NCBI RefSeq assembly: GCF_030684315.1
Contig: NC_081360.1
Location: 48,183,424-48,247,423 of the forward strand
Source of the DNA: Stegostoma tigrinum
Lineage: Eukaryota
Direction: 5' to 3'
DNA: 64,000 bases
A model generated the notes under the pieces. That model was not told where the DNA came from. It saw only the letters and a program-made list of their open reading frames with translations, and ran no database searches. This document shows positions 55-60,432 of the stretch, piece after piece (the stretch's first letter is position 1; every line of letters starts with the position of its first letter). A program made the position numbers and the translations under genes.

Positions 55-910
55 TGGCCAACCTCATTCCAATCACTACAGAGATATAGACCAACTAAGC
101 GAGTGGGCAAAACCTTGTACGCAATATAATCTGGGAAAATGTGAGATTGTTCACTTTGGGAGGAAAAACAGAAGAGCTGAACATTATTTAAACGGAGAAA
201 GACCATAGAAAGCTACAAACAGAGTGACTTGAAAATCCTCATCTGTGAATCAGAAAATGTAGTATCCAAGATCAGCAGGTATTTGGAAAGGCAAATGGAA
301 TGTTGGTCATTATTTCAAAGGGGATGGAGTATAAAAGTAGGGAGGTTCTGCTAAAACTATACAAGACAGTAGTCAGACCACAGCTGGAATAACATGAACA
401 GTTTTGAGTCCCTTATCCAAGGAAAGATGTACTGGCATGAGATGATGGGTAGAGAAGTTTCACTCAGCCTATATCAGGGTATGGAGAGACTGGATTCTGA
501 GGAAAGGCTGAGCTTGTGGTTGTGTAAGGAGTAAGGAGTCACCTATTTAAAACCGAGTTGAGGAGGAATTTCTTCTGTCGAGATTCGTGAAATTGTGGAA
601 TTCTTTATAAAGCAGACAGCTTTTGAAGATAGGTAGTTAAGTATATTAGAGGCCGAGGGAGATTTTTAATCAGAAGGGAGTCAAAGCTTGTAGGAAAAAG
701 GCAAAAAAGTGGAATTGAGAGTTATTAGATCAGCCATGGTATCGTTGAATGGCAAAACAGACTTCTTGGCTTGAATGAAAGATAACAAGATGTAGAGCTG
801 GATGAACACAACAGGCCAAGCAGCATCAGAGGAGCAGGAAAGCTGACGTTTCGGGCCTAGACCCTTCTTCAGAAAATGAATGGCCTAGTTCTGCTTGTAC
901 GTTTTATGGA
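55..910 (+). mobile_element. Decayed CR1/HER1-like LINE 3' fragment (with a small PLE-derived insert at ~779-875)
   Basis: DIDQLSEWA..KCEIVHFGRKN (RT C-terminus), then LVRPQLE-like region and gatcagccatg...gaatggcc 3' end. Confidence 0.75.
779..875 (-). mobile_element. Short PLE-derived terminal fragment with hammerhead motif
   Basis: Reverse complement of 845-872 is CTGAAGAAGGGTCTAGGCCCGAAACGTC, followed by the family 3' sequence. Confidence 0.75.
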
Positions 911-3178: not shown

Positions 3179-4330
3179 GATAATAAAATGTGAGGCTGGA
3201 CGAACACAGCAGGCCAAGCAGCATCTCAGGAGCACAAAAGCTGACGTTTCGGGCCTAGACCCTTCATCAGAGAGGGGGATGGGGGGAGGGAACTGGAATA
3301 AATAGGGAGAGAGGGGGAGGCGGACCGAAGACATTTTTCCATCCCCTCCCCTGTCTGCTTTCCGGAGAGACCACTCTCTCCGTGACTCCCTTGTTCGCTC
3401 CACACTGCCCTCCAACCCTACCACACCCGGCACCTTCCCCTGCAACCGCAGGAAATGCTACACTTGTCCCCACACCTCCTCCCTCACCCCCATCCCAGGC
3501 CCCAAGATGACATTCCACATCAAGCAGAGGTTCACCTGCACATCTGCCAATGTGGTATACTGCATCCACTGTACCCGGTGCGGCTTCCTCTACATTGGGG
3601 AAACCAAGCGGAGGCTTGGGGACCGCTTTGCAGAACACCTCCGCTCAGTTCGCAAAAAACAACTGCACCTCCCAGTCACAAACCATTTCCACTCCCCCTC
3701 CCATTCTCTTGATGACATGTCCATCATGGGCCTCCTGCACTGCCACAATGATGCCACCCGAAGGTTGCAGGAACAGCAACTCATATTCCGCCTGGGAACC
3801 CTGCAGCCATATGGTATCAATGTGGACTTCACCAGTTTCAAAATCTCCCCTTCCCCTACTGCATCCCTCAACCAGCCCAGTTCGTCCCCTCTCCCCACTG
3901 CACCACACAACCAGCCCAGCTCTTCCCCCCCACCCACTGCATCCCAAAACCAGTCCAACCTGTCTCTGCCTCCCTAACCGGTTCTTCCTCTCACCCATCC
4001 CTTCCTCCCACCCCAAGCCGCACCCCCAGCTAACTACTAACCTCATCCCACCTCCTTGACCTGTCCGTCTTCCCTGGACTGACCTATCCCCTCCCTACCT
4101 CCCCACCTACACTCTCTCCACCTATCTTCTTTACTCTCCATCTTCGGTCCGCCTCCCCCTCTCTCCCTATTTATTCCATTTCCCTCCCCCCATCCCCCTC
4201 TCTGATGAAGGGTCTAGGCCCGAAACGTCAGCTTTTGTGCTCCTGAGATGCTGCTTGGCCTGCTGTGTTCGTCCAGCCTCACATTTTATTATCTTGGAAT
4301 CTCCAGCATCTGCAGTTCCCATTATCTCTG
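3179..4330 (+). mobile_element. 5'-truncated Penelope-like element (Neptune-type) with GIY-YIG endonuclease and inverted 5' arm (3179-3330)
   Basis: ORF 3507-3977 has VVYCIHC...LYIGETKRRL..RF.EH...E..LI.RL.TL.P.GIN; Cys-rich linker CNRRKCYTC upstream; TSD AGCATATAAGGGATA at 3168-3182 and 4331-4345. Confidence 0.9.
4202..4229 (+). ncRNA. Minimal type-I hammerhead ribozyme motif in PLE terminus
   Basis: CTGATGA-A-GGGT CTAG GCCC-GAAAC-GTC: catalytic boxes, stem II, palindromic ACGT stem III, GUC triplet; mirror copy on - strand at 3243-3270. Confidence 0.8.
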
Positions 4331-22037: not shown

Positions 22038-23970
22038 GTCTTATGTAAAGGTGAGGCGTGAAGGCTCAGTTAGGGTGCTTGAGAGTTACAAGTTAGCCAG
22101 GAAGGACCTAAAGAGAGAGCTAAGAAGAGCCAGGAGGGGACATGAGAAGTCTTTGGCAGGTAGGATCAAGGAAAACCCTAAAGCTTTCTATAGGTCTGTC
22201 AGGAACATAAGAATGACTAGAGTAAGATTAGGGCCAGTCAAGGACAGTAGTGGGAAGTTGTGTGTGGAGTCCAAAGCAATAGGAGAGGCGTTAAATGAAT
22301 ATTTTTTGCCAGTAATCGCACAGTAAAAAGATAATGTTGAGGCGAATACTGACATACTGGCTATTAGACTAGAAGGGATTGAGGTTCATAAGGAGGAGGT
22401 GTTCGCAATTCTGGAAAGCGTGAAAATAGATAAGTCCCCTGGGCCAGATGGGATTTACCCTAGGATTCTCTGGGAAGCTAGGGAGGGGATTGCAGAGCCT
22501 TTGGCTTTGATCTTTATGTCATCATTGTCTACAGGAATAGTGCCAGAAGACTGGAGAATAGCAAATGTTGTCCCCTTGTTCAAGAAGGGGAGTAGAGACA
22601 GCCCTCGTAATTACAGACCAGTGAGCCTTACTTTGGTTCTGGGTAAAGTGTTGGAGAGGATTATAAGAGAGAGGATTTATAATCGTCTAGAAAGGAGTAA
22701 TTTGATTAGGAATAGTCAACACGGTTTTGTGAAGGGTAGGTCGTGCCTCACAAACCTTATTGAGTTCTTTGAGAAAGTGACCAAACAGGTGGATGAGCGG
22801 TTGATGTGGTGTCTATGGATTTTAGTAATGCGTTTGATAAGGTTTCCCCATGGTAGGCTATTGCAGAAAATATGGAGGCATGGGGTTGAGGGTGATTTAG
22901 CAGTTTGGATCAGAAATTGGCTAGCAGTAAGAAGACGGAGGGTGGTGGTTGATGGAAAATGCTCGTCCTGGAGTTCAGTTATTAGTGGGATACCGCAAGG
23001 ATCTGTTTTGGGGCCACTGCTGTTTGTCATTTTTATAAATGACCTGGATGAGGGTGTAGAAGTATTGGCTAGTAAATTTGTGGATGACACTAAAGTCAGT
23101 GGGGTTGTGTATAGTGCAGAAAGATATTGCGGGTTACAGAGGGACATAGATAAGCTGCAGAAGTGGGCTGAGAGGTGGCAAATGGAGTTTAATGTGGAAA
23201 AGTATGAGGTGATTTACTTTGGAAGGAGTAACAGGAATACAGAGTACTGGGCTAATAGTAAGATCCTTGGTAGTGTGGATGAGCAGAGAGATCTCTGTCC
23301 ATGTGCACCGATCCCTGAAAGTTGCCACCCAGGTTGATAGGTTTGTTAAGAAGGTGTATGGTGTGTTAGGTTTTATGGTAGAGGGCGGAGTTTCGGAGCC
23401 ATGAGGTCACATTGCAGCTGTACAAAACTCTGGTGCGGCCGTACTTGGAGAATAGCGTACAGTTCTGGTCGCCGCATTATATGAAGGATGTGGAAGCATT
23501 GGAAAGGGTGCAAAGGAAATTTAACAGGATGTTGCTTGGTATGGAGGGAAGGTCTTAGGAGGAAAGGCTGAGGGACTTGAGGCTGTTTTCGTTAGAGAGA
23601 AGAAGGTTAAGAGGTGACTTAATAGACATACAAGATGATCAGAGGATTAGATAGAGTGGACAGTGAAAGCTATTTTCCTTGGATGATAATGCATAGCACG
23701 AGGGGACATAGTTTTAAATTGAGGGATGATAGATATAGGGCAGAAGTCAGAGGTAAGTTCTTCACTCAGAGAAGTAAGGGCGTGGGATGACTTGCCTACA
23801 ACAGTAGTAGACTCGCCAACTTTAAGGGCATTTAAATGGCCATTGGATAAACATATGGATGATAATGGAATAGTGTAGATCAGATGGGCTTCAGATTGGT
23901 TTCACAGGTCGGTGCAACATCAAGGGCCAAAGGGCCTGTACTGCGCTGTAATGTTCTATGTTCTATGTTC
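22038..23970 (+). mobile_element. 5'-truncated CR1/HER1-like LINE with partly open reverse transcriptase
   Basis: ORF 22399-23337: KSPGPDGI, NYRPVSLT, QHGF..GRSCLTNL, GIPQGSVLGP, FVDD; frameshifts and stops; tail (ttctatg)n. Confidence 0.93.
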
Positions 23971-43105: not shown

Positions 43106-43181
43106 CTGCTTCCACACCAAAGGGGTTCTTTGTTAAAAATACTATATTTGGTTGCACGCTTGCTCGGTGTGTTTGATTGCA

Positions 43182-43215
43182 AATGTTTCGTCACCTTGTT
43201 GGATAACATCGTCAG
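43182..43215 (-). ncRNA. Hammerhead ribozyme motif of the Poseidon-type PLE
   Basis: CTGACGA-T-GTTATC CAACAA GGTGAC-GAAAC-ATT, 6-bp stem II with G-U pairs; degenerate mirror copy at 45952-45985 (+). Confidence 0.65.
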
Positions 43216-45378
43216 TCTGTCTCTGGTGAAGCACCGGTGTTCTGTCCTGCTTATTATTTATATGCCTCGGTTTGCTGGGGTGGTTGGTATTATTTTTTGG
43301 TGTCTTGTATATCAGGTCCAGTTCAATGTGTTTGTTGACAGAGTTCTGGTTAGAATGCCAGGCCTCTAGGAATTCCCTGACATGTCTCTGTTTGGTTTGT
43401 GTTATTAGGGATGTGTTGTCCCAGTTGAATTCATATCCTCCTTTGTCCATGTTTATTAAGACACCTGGGAATTGGTAATGTCTCTTGGTGGCTAGTTGGT
43501 GTTCATGTGTCCTTATTGTCGGTTTTCTTCCAGTTTGGCCTTTGTAATGTTTCTCACAGTCCTTGCAAGGTATTTTGTATATAACATTAGTTTTGTCAGT
43601 TGTGGGTATGGGGTCCTTTACATTCGTCTGTAGTTGTTGGTTTATGGGCTACCCTGATGCCTAGGAATCAGAGTAATCTTGCGGTCATCTCTATGTCTCT
43701 GATGTACATTAGGGTAACTAGTGTGTCTGGCCGTGTTGTGTCACCTTGTTGTGGTCTGTCGTGGAGGTAATGGCAGATTGTGCTTTCTGGGTATCCATTG
43801 CTTTTGAAAACTCCGTATAAGTGCTCCCGTTCTGCTTTTGCGCAATTTTGCGTTGCTGTGGTGTGTTGTGATTGTTTGAATAATTCCTGATGCATCTCTG
43901 TTTATGGGTGTTGGTGTGGTTGCTGGTATAATTAAGTATCTGGTCCATATGTGTTGCCTGTCTGTGTACACCTAGTCTAGAGTTTCCCCGTTGTTCTTGC
44001 ATTCTGCCGTTACGCCCAGGAAGGGTAGTCAGTTGTTGTTCTCTTCTACCATTGTGAATTTTGTTCCAGTGAGGAGGTTGTTTCTATGTTGGTGGGTTTC
44101 TTCTGGTTCGGTGCGTTTGATAATCATGAAGGTATCATCTACATAGCGGACCCAGCGTCTAGGTTAGATAGTGGGGAGCACTGTCTGTTCTAATCTTTCC
44201 ATTACTGCTACTGCAATCGGTCTGGATATTGGGGATCCCATTGGTGTTCTGTTGATTTGTTTAAATAAGTGGCCATTGAAGATGAAGTAGGTTATGAGGC
44301 ACAGATCCAGTTGATTCAGAGGTCCTTGTTAGTGCTGTTGGTGACATGGGGTGCCTGCCTTTCTGATTCATCCAGCAGTATGACAATTGTTGCTTTGTCT
44401 CGGTTGATGTTTATGGATATAAGAGGTGTTGTTACATTGAAGGATACCATTATCTTGTGCTCATCTCTTCTGGTGTCCTTGATGATGTTGAGGAATTATT
44501 GCTAGGAGTGGATGGAATGGGTAGTATTGTCAAGTAAGTTTTTCAGTTTCCGTTGTGTTGCTTTTGGCTAGTCTATATGTTGGAGTGCCTGGTAATGAGA
44601 CAATGGGTCTGAAGGGGACCCCTTGTTTGTATACCATAGGGAGTCCATAGAAGCAGGGTGTGTTGGATCCCTCTGGCTTTGTTTTTAGGTAGCCTGTCTT
44701 GCTGATGTCCCCTGAGCTCTGCAATTTCTTCAGGGTTGTTGCGATCCAGTTCATGAACTGTGGTGTTGGGTATGTTGCCACTTGTTGGTAGTTGTTGATG
44801 TTTGCTAATGTGTTGGCTTTCTTGATATTATTGAGCTCTATTAAGGATTATTGTGACGCGTCCTTTATCTGCCGATGGGATCCTGATGTTTCTGTCTTTC
44901 TTAAGTCTTTCCAGGGCTTTCTTCTCTTTCGTGTTGAATGTGTTTGACTTAGCTTTTCTGCTCAGTGTTGGGACTGTCATTTGTCTGATGGTCTGTTGTA
45001 TTTCCTCTCTGAGTTCATTGCTGTTCAGTGTTGATTCCAGTGCAGCCAGGAAGTCAGCTTTTTTTGGCATTTCTGTAGTAATAATTCAGTCCAGGTACTA
45101 GGACAGTCTTTTCAGTGTCTGTAAGTGGCCAGCCTGTGATGTTCTTGATCCATGTTTCTGTATTTCTGTTGTGAGTGAGTTTGGAAGTTTGTCTTGTAGG
45201 GATATAGTTTTCTTTGTTCAGGTCCTCTGTTGTTGAATGGTGATGGCGTGTTCCAATGTGGTTGTCCATTCTCGGTCAGTTGTGTTGGAGCACAAAGTGT
45301 TTGGCGTGCCATTGCCTGCTTGTATTTGTGGAGGCGGTTGTGGGCATCGTTGATCATAACCCTTATCATTCTGTAAGC

Positions 45379-45537
45379 TAATAAAATGTGAGGCTGGATG
45401 AACACAGCAGGCCAAGCAGCATCTCAGGAGCACAATAGCTTTTGTGCTCCTGAGATGCTGCTTGGCCTGCTGTGTTCATCCAGCCTCACATTTTATTATC
45501 TTGGAATTCTCCAGCATCTGCAGTTCCCATTATCTCT
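45379..45537. mobile_element. Near-perfect hairpin mini-element (Neptune-type PLE terminus) nested in the Poseidon-type PLE
   Basis: 57-bp perfectly complementary arms centred on AGCT (45437-45440); TSD TCATTCTGTAAGCT at 45366-45379 and 45537-45550. Confidence 0.9.
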
Positions 45538-47730
45538 CATTCTGTAAGCTGTTCTCCTTGCCTGTGGATTGTTGACAGGTGGTTTATATTTTAAACTTTG
45601 TGATAGTACCTGCCTTTTGAGGTGTACGTGCAGGAAGTATAGTTGTTCGCGAGTCGCCAACTAGCCACCAAGAGGCACGACCAATTCTCACTTGTCTCAA
45701 TACACACAGACAAAGAAGGATGTGAATTCAATTGGGACAAAACATCCATAATAGCACAAGCCAAACAGAGACATGCCAGGGAATTCCTGGAGTCCTGGCA
45801 TTCCAATGGAACTCCATCAACAAACATATTGAACTGGACCTGATTTACAAATCACTGAAAAACAAAGCTGGATATAATACCAACCACCCTAGCAAATCGA
45901 AGCATATAAATAACAAGCCAGACAGAACACCAATGCTTCTCCAGAGGTGCACTGACGATGTTACTAGCGCGGTGATGAAATGGCTACAATCAAACACATA
46001 CCAGGTTGATGAGCAAGTCTGCAACCTCTTCAACAACCTGAGCTACAAATCTTCTCAAAAACGTTAGATACCATATTCATGTATTTAAAATGTCAGATTG
46101 TAAGATTAATAATTTCTGATTGCATTAAGATCATAGCCAGAATAAAATCAGACATCAAAACAAATGACTTCAGGTATGTCCTTTCTGTTTTCAAAGTAGA
46201 GAAATTTGACATTCCATAAATATAAATGTAGCTTTTCAGGGCAGATGAGTGTTTAATAGTAATTATAAATTTACTATACTGTTCAAAGTCTGATTGTTTA
46301 GTGAAATGTAAAGTGTAACTTTGAAAGACTATTGCAACGAAGAATGGAAGTATTTGACAGGCCATAGATTACCCCCTCATTTAAATCAACTGCATGGAGG
46401 TTTGGTGGTGGGGGGGGGGTTGGTCTTTATAGCTTCACTTTTTTCTTGCAATGTAAAAATAGAGTATTGAGTTGTTCACACTTCTTAAAACAATACTTGC
46501 AGCTGAACAATTAAAAAATGATTTTCTCTTAAGAGTACTGTTGAATAACACTTATGCTTTCAATTTTTCATGTTTCTATTTCCCTAATTTTCTTAAGTGC
46601 TTTTACAAATAACGTTTCTTGCAGTTTTACCTTTTTTTAAAAGAAACAATTATGATAATACTTGTTCATTTAATGAACATTTCAAGTCTTCTAACTTCTC
46701 AGCCTTTTCCTTTCTACAACCAAGACATTTTAACTAACTTTGGTTGACTGCAGTCGAGCACCTTCTACTCCTTGCAGCTTTGGTGAGACCACATGGTCTT
46801 CAGCTTTTTGATAACTTTTTTGCTGATTCCACCTGGTTTGAAGTTTTACAGACAGGTTTGGTGCTGCTATTGCTTCTACAGCCTTTTTATTATCAGCTGT
46901 CACTTTTTCAGAAGTGGACATGCTCCTAAGCTGCTGAAAATATAAAGATGTTTTTCCCATTGGAATTGTTTCCTTCTTTCTTCTCAGAAGACTAGGGTCT
47001 TTGTAGATATGAAAATTTAGTCAGCCTAGCACTATTGCTGGTGTATTTTATGTGAGAGTGATGCCAACTGCTACTACTACTACCTTATATAGTCCAGTGA
47101 GTTGAATCTTCAGCCAGCCCCACCTTCAAACTGTTGGTTTCTGCCAGAATCATCCATGATGTCTTATGCAGATTCAATGCCACTTAGCGTTCTGGCTGCC
47201 ATTTGCCCAGGCCACTGACACCATATGGCGAATGTCTGAGGGAGAAGATCAGGCATCGTTTGTTTCAATCTTAATATCTTTATATTCGATATGATTCATC
47301 ATAGCTTATTCATTCAGATGTGCCTATTTATCAATAAAAAGTTCTTTCTCTTGAAATTCATCTTCCTATTACCATCAACATAATTGAAGGGAAAATTCAG
47401 GGTCTGCACAAGTGCGCACTAAACTGATGCCACCGATCTTACTAATCTGTCTTTTTCCAAAATAGAAGTAGAATCAGTAATCTTACAAACACTATGACCA
47501 GGCTGCCACCCCAGTTGGTCTGTTTATCTAATGAAATGGAATAGAATTCAACACAGTTATCAATTTTAAACTTAAAGCCAGTGACTTAGTCGACGACAGA
47601 TTGAGCTTAACTAACCATATGCACTATAATTGTTTAATTATGCAATAATTTATCATGTTTGTTAACTTAATATCATTTATTATAATGTTATTGTTCAGTC
47701 ATCATTTAATAGCATTGTTGCTGTTTCCAG

Positions 47731-54132: not shown

Positions 54133-56620
54133 GATAATAAAGTGTGAAGCTGGATGAACACAGCAGGCCAAGCAGCATCTCAGGAGCACAAAAGCTGACG
54201 TTTCGGGCCTAGACCCTTCATCAGAGAGGGGGATGGGGAGAGGGTTCTGGAATAAATAGGGAGAGAGGGGGAGGCGGACCGAAGATGGAGAGAAAAGAAG
54301 ATAGGTGGAGAGGAGAGTATAGGTAGGGAGGTAGGGAGGGGATAGGTCGGTCCAGGGAAGACGGACACGTCAAGGAGGTGGGATGAGGTTAGTAGGTAGG
54401 AAATGGAGGTGCGGCTTGGGGTGGGAAGAAGGGATGGGTGAGAGGAAGAACAGGTTAGGGAGGCAGAGACAGGCTGGGCTGGTTTTGGATGCAGTGGGGG
54501 GAGGGGATGAGCTGGGCTGGTTGTGTGATGCAGTGGGGGGAGGGGACGAACTGGGCTGGTTTTGGGATGCGGTGGGGGCAGGAGAGATTTTGAAACTGGT
54601 GAAGTCCACATTGATACCATTGGGCTACAGGGTTCCCAAGCGGAATATGAGTTGCTGTTCCTGCAACCTTCGGGTGGCATCATTGTGGCACTGCAGGAGG
54701 CCCATGATGGACGTGTCATCGAAAGAATGGGAGGGGGAGTGGAAATGGTTCACGACTGGGAGGTGCAGTTGTTTGTTGTGAACCGAGCGGATGTGTTCTG
54801 CAAAGCGGTCCCCAAGCCTCCGCTTGGTTTCCCCAATTGTAGAGGAAGCCACACCGGTACAATGGATACAGTATAGCACATTGGCAGATGTGCAGGTGAA
54901 CATCTGCTTAATATGGAAAGTCATCTTGGGGCCTGGGATAGGGGTGAGGGAGGAGGTGTGGGGGCAAGTGTAGCACTTCCTGCGGTTGCGGGGGAAGGTG
55001 CCGGGTGTGGTGGGGTTGGAGGGCAGTGTGGAGCGAACAAGGGAGTCACGGAGAGAGTGGTCTCCAGAAACCAGACAAGGGTGGGGATGGAAAAATGTCC
55101 TGGGTGGTGGGGTCGGATTGTAGATGGCGGAAGTGTCGGAGGATGATGCGTTGTATCGGGAGGTTGGTGGGGTGGTGTGTGAGAACGAGGCGGATCCTCT
55201 TTGGGCGGTTGTGGCAGGGGCGGGGAGTGAGGGATGTGTTGCAGGAAATGCGGGTGACACGGTCAAAGGCGTTCTCGACCACTGTGGGGGGGAAAGTTGC
55301 GGTCCTTGAAGAACTTGGACATCTGGTATGTGCGGGAGTGGAATGCTTCATCCTGGGAGCAGATGCGGCGGAGGCGGATGAATTGGGAATAGGCGATGGA
55401 ATTTTTGCAGGAGGGTGGGTGGGAGGAGGTGTACTCTAGGTAGCTGTGGGAGTCGGTGGGCTTGAAATGGACATCAGTTTCTAGCTGGTTGCCTGAGATG
55501 GAGACTGAGAGGTCCAGGAAGGTGAGGGATGTGTTGGAGATGGCCCAGGTGAACTTGAGGTTGGGGTGGAAGGTGTTGGTGAAGTGGATGAACTGTTCGA
55601 GCTCCTCTGGGGAGCAAGAGGCAGCACCGATACAGTCATCAATGTAACGGAGGAAGAGGTGGGGTTTGGGGCTTGTGTAGATGCAGAAGAGGGACTGTTC
55701 CACGTAACCTACAAAGAGGCGGGCATAGCTGTGGCCCATGCGGGTGCCCATGGTCACTCCCTTTGTCTTTAGGAAGGGTGGAATCGAAAGAGAAGTTGCT
55801 GAGGGTGAGGACGAGTTCAGTTAGGCAGATGAGGGTGTCGGTGGAGGGGGACTGGTCGGGCCTGCGGGACAGGAAGAAACGGAGGGCCTTGAGGCCATCC
55901 GCATGCGGAATACAGAAACACCTCCGCTCGGTTCGCAATAAACAACTGCACCTCCCAGTCGCGAACCATTTCAACCCCCCCCCCCATTCTTTTGATGACG
56001 TGTCCATCATGTGCCTCCTGCAGTGCCACAATGATGCCACCTGAAGGTTGCAGGAACAGCAACTCATATTCCGCTTGGGAACCCTGCAGCCCAATGGTAT
56101 CAATGTGGACTTCACCAGCTTCAAAATCTCCCCTTCCCCCACCGCATCCCAAAACCAGCCCACTTCACCCCTCCCCCCACTGCATCACACAACCAGCCCA
56201 GCTCATCCCCTCCCCCCACTGCATCCTAAAACCAGCCCAGCCTGTCTCTGCCTCCCTGACCTGTTCTTCCTCTCACCCATCCCTTCCTCCCACTCCAAGC
56301 CGCACCTCCATTTCCTACCTACTAACCTCATCCCACCTCCTTGACGTGTCCGTCTTCCCTGGACTGACCTATCCCCTCCCTACCTCCCCACCTATACTCT
56401 CCTCTCCACCTATCTTCTTTTCTCTCCATCTTCGGTCTGCCTCCCCCTCTCTCCCTATTTATTCCAGAACCCTCACCCCATCCCCCTCTCTGATGAAGGG
56501 TCTAGGCCCGAAACGTCAGCTTTTGTGCTCCTGAGATGCTGCTTGGCCTGCTGTGTTCATCCAGCTTCACACTTTATTATCTTGGATTTTCCAGCATCTG
56601 CAGTTCCCATTATCTCTGAT
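54133..56620 (-). mobile_element. Neptune-type Penelope-like element: RT plus GIY-YIG on - strand, inverted + strand arm ~55915-56620
   Basis: MGTRMGHSYARLF..FLRYIDD..TFLDL..FKPTDSHSYL (55263-55757); IGETKRRLGDRFAEH (54625-55266); frameshifted; hammerheads at 54197-54224 (-) and 56490-56517 (+); TSD ACATGAGAGGGG at 54121-54132 and 56621-56632. Confidence 0.93.
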
Positions 56621-58183: not shown

Positions 58184-58435
58184 AGGGAAAAAAAAACTAA
58201 ACAACAGTGAATGCTGCAAGTTAGAATCAAAAATAGAAATTGTTGGAAAAGTTTAGCAGGTCTGGCAGCATCTGTGGAGAGAAAGCAGAGGTAACGTTTC
58301 GTGTCCAGTGACCCTTCTTCAGAACTCACTTGGAGTTATTAAGAAGGATCATTGGGTCTGAAATATTAACTTTTCATTGTCTCCACAGATTCTGCCAGAC
58401 TTGCTGAGATTTTCCAGCAATTTCTATTTTTTTAA
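58184..58435. mobile_element. Fold-back hammerhead-type element within a - strand CR1 remnant (~57720-58630)
   Basis: Inverted arms tctggcagcatctgtggaga/ctccacagattctgccagac; TSD ATCAATCTAGTAAA at 58170-58183 and 58436-58449. Confidence 0.78.
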
Positions 58436-59049
58436 ATCAATCTAGTAAACTACATCTGAACATGCTCTGATGCATTTCACCCTTTCTTATATAAAGAGAC
58501 AAGAACTGCACATATTTGGGATTTGGTCACACTAATGTCCAGCATAACTGAAGTATAAAATTTTTCTCTTCTGCTAAATTCCTGTCATAATAAAATATAG
58601 TATCACATTAACCTTCTTGATCACTCCACTATTTGCTCATGAGGGGATTCTGATATAATTCCATGTGAGGATCATATATATTTTCAGGGGAACTTTCAGG
58701 TCACAGTGCTCTCATTTGTCTGCTGTTCTTGTTTCTGTCAGTCTGATAAGTTGCAGGTATGGGAAGTAATGTTGATGGGACCTTGGTGAGCCCTACAGCG
58801 AATCATGTAAACGGTACACACCTACTACCATATGCTAGGAGTAGTGAAAATTTTAAAGTGGGTGGTGGGTGCCAAACAAACTGATTTATCTTGGATTGTG
58901 TCAGGCTTTCCAAGTACAGTTGGAGCTTTCAGCCCTTGTAGCCATCTACAGTGACTTTTCCAGGGCAAGGCTATCGCTGTTTGTCTCAGGACTGTTCTGA
59001 TGCCTTTATTTTATTGTCTAATCTATATACCCAACAGCCTCTAATTCCA

Positions 59050-60137
59050 GAGATAATGGGAACTGCAGATGCTGGAGAATTCCAAGATAATAAAATGTGA
59101 GGCTGGATGAACACAGCAGGCCAAGCAGCATCTCAGGAGCACAAAAGCTGACGTTTCGGGCCTAGACCCTTCATCAGAGAGGGGGATGGGGAGAGGGAAC
59201 TGGAATAAATAGGGAGTGAGGGGGAGGCGGACCGAAGATGGAGAGTAAAGAAGATAGGTGGAGAGAGTGTAGGTGGGGAGGTAGGGAGGGGATAGGTCGG
59301 TCCAGGGAAGACGGACAGGTCAAGGAGGTGGGATGAGGTTAGTAGATAGCTGGGGGTGCGGCTTGGGGTGGGAGGAAGGGATGGGTGAGAGGAAGAACCG
59401 GTTAGGGAGGCAGAGACAGGTTGGACTGGTTTTGGGATGCAGTGGGTGGGGGGGAAGAGCTGGGCTGGTTGTGTGGTGCAGTGGGGGGAGGGGACGAACT
59501 GGGCTGGTTTAGGGATGCAGTAGGGGAAGGGGAGATTTTGAAACTGGTGAAGTCCACATTGATACCATATGGCTGCAGGGCTGCAGTGCCACAATGATGC
59601 CACCCGAAGGTTGCAGGAACAGCAACTCATATTCCGCCTGGGAACCCTGCAGCCATATGGTATCAATGTGGACTTCACCAGTTTCAAAATCTCCCCTTCC
59701 CCTACTGCATCCCTAAACCAGCCCAGTTCGTCCCCTCCCCCCACTGCACCACACAACCAGCCCAGCTCTACCCCCCACCCACTGCATCCCAAAACCAGTC
59801 CAACCTGTCTCTGCCTCCCTAACCGGTTCTTCCTCTCACCCATCCCTTCCTCCCACCCCAAGCCGCATCCCCAGCTACCTACTAACCTCATCCCACCTCC
59901 TTGACCTGTCCGTCTTCCCTGGACCGACCTATCCCCTCCCTCCCTCCCCACCTACACTCTCTCCACCTATCTTCTTTACTCTCCATCTTCGGTCCGCCTC
60001 CCCCTCTCTCCCTATTTATTCCAGTTCCCTCTCCCCATCCTCCTCTCTGATGAAGGGTCTAGGCCCGAAATGTCAGCTTTTGTGCTCCTGAGATGCTGCT
60101 TGGCCTGCTGTGTTCATCCAGCCTCACATTTTATAGT
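59050..60137. mobile_element. Palindromic Neptune-type PLE insertion (two ~490-bp inverted 3' ends)
   Basis: Arms ~59086-59580 and ~59645-60135; hammerheads at 59150-59177 (-) and 60047-60074 (+); TSD CTCTAATTCCA at 59039-59049 and 60138-60148. Confidence 0.92.
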
Positions 60138-60432
60138 CTCTAATTCCACTTTCCTATCTGTCAAGACTAAGTGGCAAGACCTCCCTCTTGTATTATCAAA
60201 GGTTCTTTCTTCAAGTACATCATAATTTTCTGAAAAGTTCAGTTTCTGTCAAAGCTGCAGCAATGAAGTGGGAAATTCCCTGGCAAAATTCAGCTGCATG
60301 CCATAGCCCACACTTGTGATCAGATGTCTCGTCATGCTCCAGTTAATCCGTTTGCTTTGATAAGTGAAGCTTTGTATTGCAATTGCTGCTTCGTTGCTGA
60401 CCTTTCACACTTGTTGTTTATATTTTTGTTAG

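Follow-up and report, generated by a model that had tools for sequence, protein, structure and literature searches.

A short head-to-head Penelope-like insertion in Stegostoma tigrinum with both arms ending at a predicted hammerhead cut

Structure of the hairpin and its source family

Why should both arms of a short genomic palindrome begin at the very base at which a hammerhead ribozyme is predicted to cut its RNA? The question is raised by a hairpin of about 160 bases in a 64,000-nucleotide stretch of Stegostoma tigrinum DNA (assembly GCF_030684315.1, contig NC_081360.1, forward-strand positions 48,183,424 to 48,247,423; hereafter the window). This focal hairpin is a short head-to-head insertion of the end of a Penelope-like element (PLE), and we consider it most likely, at a probability of roughly 0.8, that RT copied the 5' end of a self-cleaved RNA, so that both arms halt at the predicted cut. 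Positions are numbered from the A of AGCT, window position 45437, as +1, and the features are collected in Table 1.

The perfect 57-bp stem pairs 45379-45435 with 45442-45498. A preliminary description of this DNA had two perfect 57-bp arms meeting at AGCT; the 57 perfect pairs stand, but the centre reads TAGCTT, and beside AGCT T45436 faces T45441 where an A is expected, giving one mismatch in 60 positions from the centre. The fold predicted for 45380-45536 has a 6-nt loop, with -119.5 kcal/mol and a z of -19. The hairpin is thus stable; calling it a perfect hairpin of pre-miRNA or siRNA size was apt as to size, though not as to perfection. We regard the hairpin as a by-product of insertion and propose no function for it, a small-RNA role being without support. 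At 101 of 101 positions the long arm and tail match the intact terminus at 59149-59049, and both focal arms start at +1 with none of the upstream ribozyme within them, in agreement with the earlier statement that they begin directly after GUC. The 14-bp TSD (TCATTCTGTAAGCT) and one-sided tail reported at the outset are both present; together with the inverted 5' arm, a TSD and a 30-40-nt tail on one side are the marks of short insertions of EN+ PLEs.

Table 1. Features of the focal insertion and related sequences (window coordinates)
Feature	Positions	Strand	Basis or remark
Left TSD, 14 bp	45366..45379	+	last T doubles as arm position +62 in the pairing
Short inverted arm, pLTR +62 to +1	45379..45440	-	putative cDNA from the inner RT start site
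Lone mismatch	45436..45436	.	T against the A predicted by the arm; likely a later point mutation
AGCT junction common to both arms	45437..45440	.	first four bases 3' of the predicted hammerhead cut GUC^
Long arm, pLTR +1 to +62	45437..45498	+
One-sided PLE tail (about 38 nt), +63 to +101	45499..45537	+	tail as defined in PMC11167929, PMC8557442
Right TSD	45537..45550	+
Intact terminus used as yardstick	59049..59181	-	minimal type I hammerhead: CUGAUGA from 59177, stem II, GAAA-CG-UC, arm, tail
GIY-YIG endonuclease remnant of the focal family (A), with CX4CXXC linker, putatively Neptune-type	3306..3977	+	Pfam PF01541
Decayed older Penelope-like element hosting the hairpin insertion; limits approximate	43142..45585	-	endonuclease without Cys linker, putatively Penelope/Poseidon-type

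The focal arm and tail are the pLTR common to elements encoding a GIY-YIG endonuclease, an assignment that pairs the 101/101 identity with a weak PF01541 match on the remnant, which lies upstream of a family A terminus (E 2.8e-4, 21.5 bits, under the Pfam cut-off of 22.6). A Pfam search with the endonuclease fragments of the decayed host element gave no match. Judged from decayed fragments, a CX2-5CxxC linker is seen in the family A remnant and absent from 43142-43648, a C-like remnant that aligns at just 34% over 41 residues; C is one of two other families (B and C) compared below. A Cys linker before EN marks the Neptune type and its absence the Penelope/Poseidon type (PMC8557442).

Intact termini carry CUGANGA, one extra base, stem II and GAAA-CG-UC, the layout of a minimal type I hammerhead, and show the CUGANGA plus GAAA-UH core, the extra nucleotide 9/10.1, G10.1-C11.1 and the palindromic 15.2-16.2. 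The same CUGANGA, extra nucleotide before G10.1, G10.1-C11.1, GAAA, palindromic CG and short helix I are described for PLE minimal type I hammerheads (PMC4209133). In the yardstick terminus the predicted cut falls between 59150 and 59149, and when up to three mismatches are allowed, the window holds 10 copies of the sequence around it, GAAACGTC^AGCTTTTGTGCTCC, against 0 expected. Among hammerhead instances chosen by core pattern in the sampled loci (199 from family A, 30 from B and 16 from C), stem II pairs 1-5 are kept in 77-95%, and helix I, which closes the motif at the cut, has 2 bp in A (189/199 and 181/199), 4 bp in B and 3 bp in C. Families A and B open stem I with U-A and family C opens it with A-U, a difference that fixes the register of the cut. 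Stem I of family A has just 2 pairs, and the predicted fold of the monomer is an inactive alternative hairpin. The Rfam hammerhead search returned no hit at gathering score across the window and none at E<=10 on two termini.

Insertion ends around the predicted cut

Short hairpins of family A, defined by two exact 12-nt anchors, number about 44,600 in the 3.2-Gb assembly: 1,262 with gaps of 0-13, 4,892 of 14-44, 12,122 of 45-75, 24,503 of 76-106 and 1,825 of 107-137. Our sample took the first 50 listed from each of the three middle gap strata and the first 15 of the last, plus anchored hairpins in the flanks. Excluding the focal copy and loci picked for junction type, this gave 179 hairpins, most of them within the initial 17 Mb of contig C1, which were weighted over four strata (43,342).

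Most short insertions continue past the ribozyme, and a minority belong to the +1 class. Weighted, 65% of hairpins have their furthest 5' reach at -28..-35 and 86% at or above -20; 4.3% stop exactly at +1, and 9.7% at +1 or downstream of it, a share that becomes about 12% once the 0-13 stratum is added. Short arms mostly end at +58..+68 and tails near +100, with a TSD mode of 14 bp in both end classes. The main wall of 5' ends, at -28..-35 and 2-5 nt before hammerhead stem I, appears in hairpins and solo copies alike (for example loci L051-L065; window 819-872 and 51361) and likely marks the transcription start; PLE promoters sit in the pLTR (PMC2377424, PMC6765202). A cap-derived extra base at the -32 wall was considered but is not supported: a C follows 18 of 30 hairpin arms, but the matching G was found in just 1 of 7 solo copies.

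Around the cut itself, unweighted furthest reach falls at +1 in 19 of the 179 hairpins, at +2 in 4, at +3 in 2 and at -1..-4 in 2 altogether, so that end points are enriched at the cut base over its neighbours, as the preliminary description had supposed. Arm ends over all family A copies, counted where the next three bases do not match, give 508 at +2, 3,567 at +1, 582 at -1 and 58 at -2, the -2 pattern being about 2.5 times stricter (about 0.18 of random triplets against 0.44). When 30 of the "-1" loci were inspected by eye, at least 12 proved to be +1 ends followed by the G of the partner arm, and in 6 a read-through copy carried a small indel. Among the 100 +1 ends listed, TTT, the palindromic type, follows in 64, and 36 are non-palindromic.

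Head-to-tail junctions tell of the same base. Scored by eye from arm end to tail start, with units within one array not independent, 46 of 99 are exactly +1, 8 are ambiguous, 20 fall at a -16 microhomology and 25 elsewhere. Four of five tandem arrays have AGCT at the start of each internal unit, while the preceding tail end varies from +98 to +107 (units of 98-107 nt); the fifth restarts at -16. Such varying junctions argue for repeated run-off and re-initiation: had the DNA been duplicated, or the template been a circle, a single junction would recur from unit to unit.

Arrays of about 100-nt units running from +1 to the tail end, with varying junctions, are found at L336 (C17:68221147-68221691), L337, L338 and L339. 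Minisatellites of 50 nt derived from about +13 to +62 of the pLTR are a separate observation (L103:1971-2330, L221:4370-4800, L224, L228). At L172:1525-1750 an 18S rRNA fragment, itself partly inverted, lies between two PLE arms ending at +1(+GC).

A pile-up at AGCT might also come from microhomology alone, with longer cDNAs or palindromes trimmed or deleted down to these four self-complementary bases. The preliminary description had named deletion of a longer palindrome as a rival source of AGCT-centred copies, and junctions do favour microhomology, as in the -16 jumps and in the 7 of 50 family C hairpins centred on ACGT. Against it, symmetric junctions at AGCT(+1), 709 in one subfamily only, are 3-30-fold more frequent than at four control palindromes searched, like AGCT, with patterns 24-34 nt long: 47 at ACGT(-5), 240 at GGCC(-13), 108 at CTAG(-16) and 23 at GGCC(+28), the last three of these pooling subfamilies and the first three tolerating CpG decay. 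A microhomology-only null for family A, where 18 of 51 lie at +1, yields p between 5e-13 and 0.004 across the weights tried; it predicts more ends at -1..-4 than at +1, and we observed 1 against 18.

Family C, whose terminus reads GAAACGTC^TGAAAAC with no palindrome at the cut, bears on the same point. Among the 50 listed of its 59 short hairpins, scored by script, furthest reach is +1 in 18, -1..-4 in 6 and -5, at the ACGT palindrome, in 7. Of the 100 arms, 27 end at +1, with 1, 2 and 1 at -1, -2 and -3, and four blunt +1/+1 joins (TTTTCA joined to TGAAAA) have zero microhomology. With junctions weighted by microhomology alone, the null gives P(+1) of at most 0.05 and p<=1.6e-11. Arm ends over all family C copies number 63 at +1 and 20 at -2, about 9 of 30 "+1" loci being indel noise. 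Family B, whose copies are older and whose GTTAAC palindrome spans the cut, gave no clear +1 spike in 50 listed hairpins judged by eye. The sharp peak at GTC^ that the preliminary description had set as a check is thus present, in non-palindromic junctions, tandem jumps and palindrome-free family C as well. At the level of the family we hold microhomology alone to be very improbable. For the focal copy by itself, AGCT annealing after trimming of longer cDNAs is possible, the controls implying about 50-240 such cases per 709; contigs from the four further runs compared gave multi-copy repeat pieces, none of which covers this locus.

It is somewhat less improbable, though still unlikely, that RT stalls at a folded, uncut hammerhead just before C17 and then jumps or joins, with no cleavage at all. 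About 86% of hairpins read past the site, and a 6-bp hairpin with +2 as its 3' base can form in the family A monomer, both of which suit stalling. That hairpin, however, would put the ends at +3 rather than +1; family C folds differently yet ends at the same base; furthest reach has no peak at the stem II base (-8/-9); and six consecutive array units halt at +1 with zero read-through.

The base +1 could instead be a genuine RNA end of another origin, a minor transcription start or the product of a host or element nuclease. That other ends occur is shown by the -28..-35 wall and by a second small cluster of furthest reach at +7/+8 (11 of 179). An end of this kind would have to coincide with the NUH^ base in two distant families of differing sequence, however, and +1 fits no AG splice acceptor in either, so we give this origin as little credence as microhomology alone. 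Arm ends at +7/+8, often followed by a C, can be seen at L017, L018, L024, L027, L070, L079 and L090.

Lastly, a MITE-like non-autonomous hairpin master might have spread as a unit, perhaps yielding small RNAs. The 709 identical 24-nt centres and the stable fold would suit it, but the AGCT-centred copies fall into several subfamily types, which agree within a locus, and differ in where their short arms end. Mixed in both respects, they arose repeatedly and not from one master. Arms within one hairpin differ at a median of 1 position and those of different hairpins at a median of 3; sharing subfamily marks within a locus, they point to one source per hairpin and, again, to repeated origin. Of the alternatives weighed here, a master copy is the one we find hardest to credit.

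Two cDNAs and their template

The centre of the palindrome had at first been taken as a fold-back point. Snap-back of a single cDNA needs the tail arm always to reach furthest, and this the arms refute: of 169 oriented hairpins, 73 have the tail arm as the farther-reaching one, 76 have the short arm, and in 20 the two are equal (19, 15 and 11 in family C). Snap-back is therefore rejected, and the symmetry is what two separate cDNAs would give. In the available text of PMC3846280, PLE palindromes are read as self-priming on an antisense template; here, by contrast, arm reach is symmetric and ends pile up at the cut and at -28..-35.

The template had been proposed to be the ~100-nt 3' product of self-cleavage. 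The part of this claim that concerns cleavage is supported, in that ends peak at the cut as a fossil of cleavage would, but a 100-nt template is not required. The element extends beyond the tail, which makes a template RNA of 100 nt improbable, and insertion length was likely set by internal RT start sites.

The cleaved-RNA reading can be laid out in steps. In the intact termini, stem I of the minimal type I hammerhead sets the cut at GUC^AGCU. A minority of transcripts, represented by about 4-12% of short hairpin insertions, would be cut at GUC^, and most would keep a 5' end 28-35 nt upstream of the cut. To judge from PMC11167929, the 14-bp TSD and the one-sided tail, the protein would nick the two target strands at points some 14 bp from each other, and two cDNAs would be primed, at about +100 and about +62. 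Both would run off at +1 and end in AGCT-3', the four self-complementary bases would anneal, and fill-in would produce a perfect palindrome, one base of which would have mutated afterwards in the focal copy.

Mapped across the genome, the +1 ends in two distant families likely record self-cleavage of the ribozyme in the germ line. More broadly, and with rather less assurance than for the focal copy, we favour viewing short PLE insertions as a base-resolution record of RNA ends: they would register in vivo cleavage in two clades, a germ-line cleaved fraction per family (about 5-10% here) and a transcription start near -32. They would also point to an integration route by which a dimer makes two cDNAs, from two internal start sites on both target strands, and joins them end to end, with template jumping like that of R2 from the cut 5' end.

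Relation to known systems

Head-to-head pLTR arms, a 30-40-nt one-sided tail, a TSD and a junction palindrome are known PLE structure (PMC8557442, PMC3846280). The closest experimental comparison is the Anolis Poseidon element PAc, for which RT starts in vitro at two internal sites, one on each side of the tail, and both target strands are cut and extended (PMC11167929). According to the available text of that paper, PAc ribozyme mutants insert normally and zero RNA-seq reads end at the cut. Unprocessed RNA is the main template there, in agreement with the read-through majority here; unlike in PAc, a genomic minority here ends exactly at the cut.

R2 offers a parallel in another ribozyme class. 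Its genomic 5' junctions track the self-cleavage site of an HDV-like ribozyme (PMC3774820), and "extra template" and snap-back 5' junctions are known (PMC11331408). In R2, however, cleavage frees the element from an rRNA co-transcript, whereas for these PLEs a cut template is a side route. Non-LTR retrozymes (10.64898/2026.07.22.740005) likewise comprise tandem pLTR-derived units tied to hammerheads, but the retrozyme unit is, in the text available, a whole ribozyme and thought to be circle-derived. The arrays here are without the core and their junctions differ from unit to unit; since a retrozyme has a whole hammerhead per unit, neither the focal hairpin nor the +1 arrays, which have no core, are retrozymes.

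Thus the structure is already known, and the link of PLE insertion ends to cleavage appears new: we found no earlier report in the open-access literature of PLE insertions ending at the hammerhead cut, and the accessible part of the cyPhyRNA-seq paper holds nothing on PLE ribozymes. Minimal hammerheads occur in nearly all PLEs, and the spike of ends bears on whether they cut in living cells. The available text of PMC4209133 offers no evidence that PLE hammerheads act in vivo and describes their in vitro activity as low. The spike at the cut base is evidence from DNA alone, from which the predicted cleavage may be deduced. Wherever a PLE-bearing genome has been assembled, mapping such ends would be an inexpensive way to assay the cleavage site, the relative efficiency of each ribozyme variant and the transcript start, and the same data account for the likely origin of the head-to-head, one-tailed PLE structure.

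Other PLE remnants lie in the window. A second copy of the host-type endonuclease end with a hammerhead-like terminus occupies 45657-46060, inverted relative to 43204-43499. Long head-to-head family A insertions extending into the GIY-YIG region are found at 3179-4330, 54133-56620 and 59049-60139, and older short hairpins, of a family A variant and of family B, at 1340-1541 and 58229-58431. The ORF remnant at 22327-23337 resembles what we take to be a CR1-type non-LTR reverse transcriptase.
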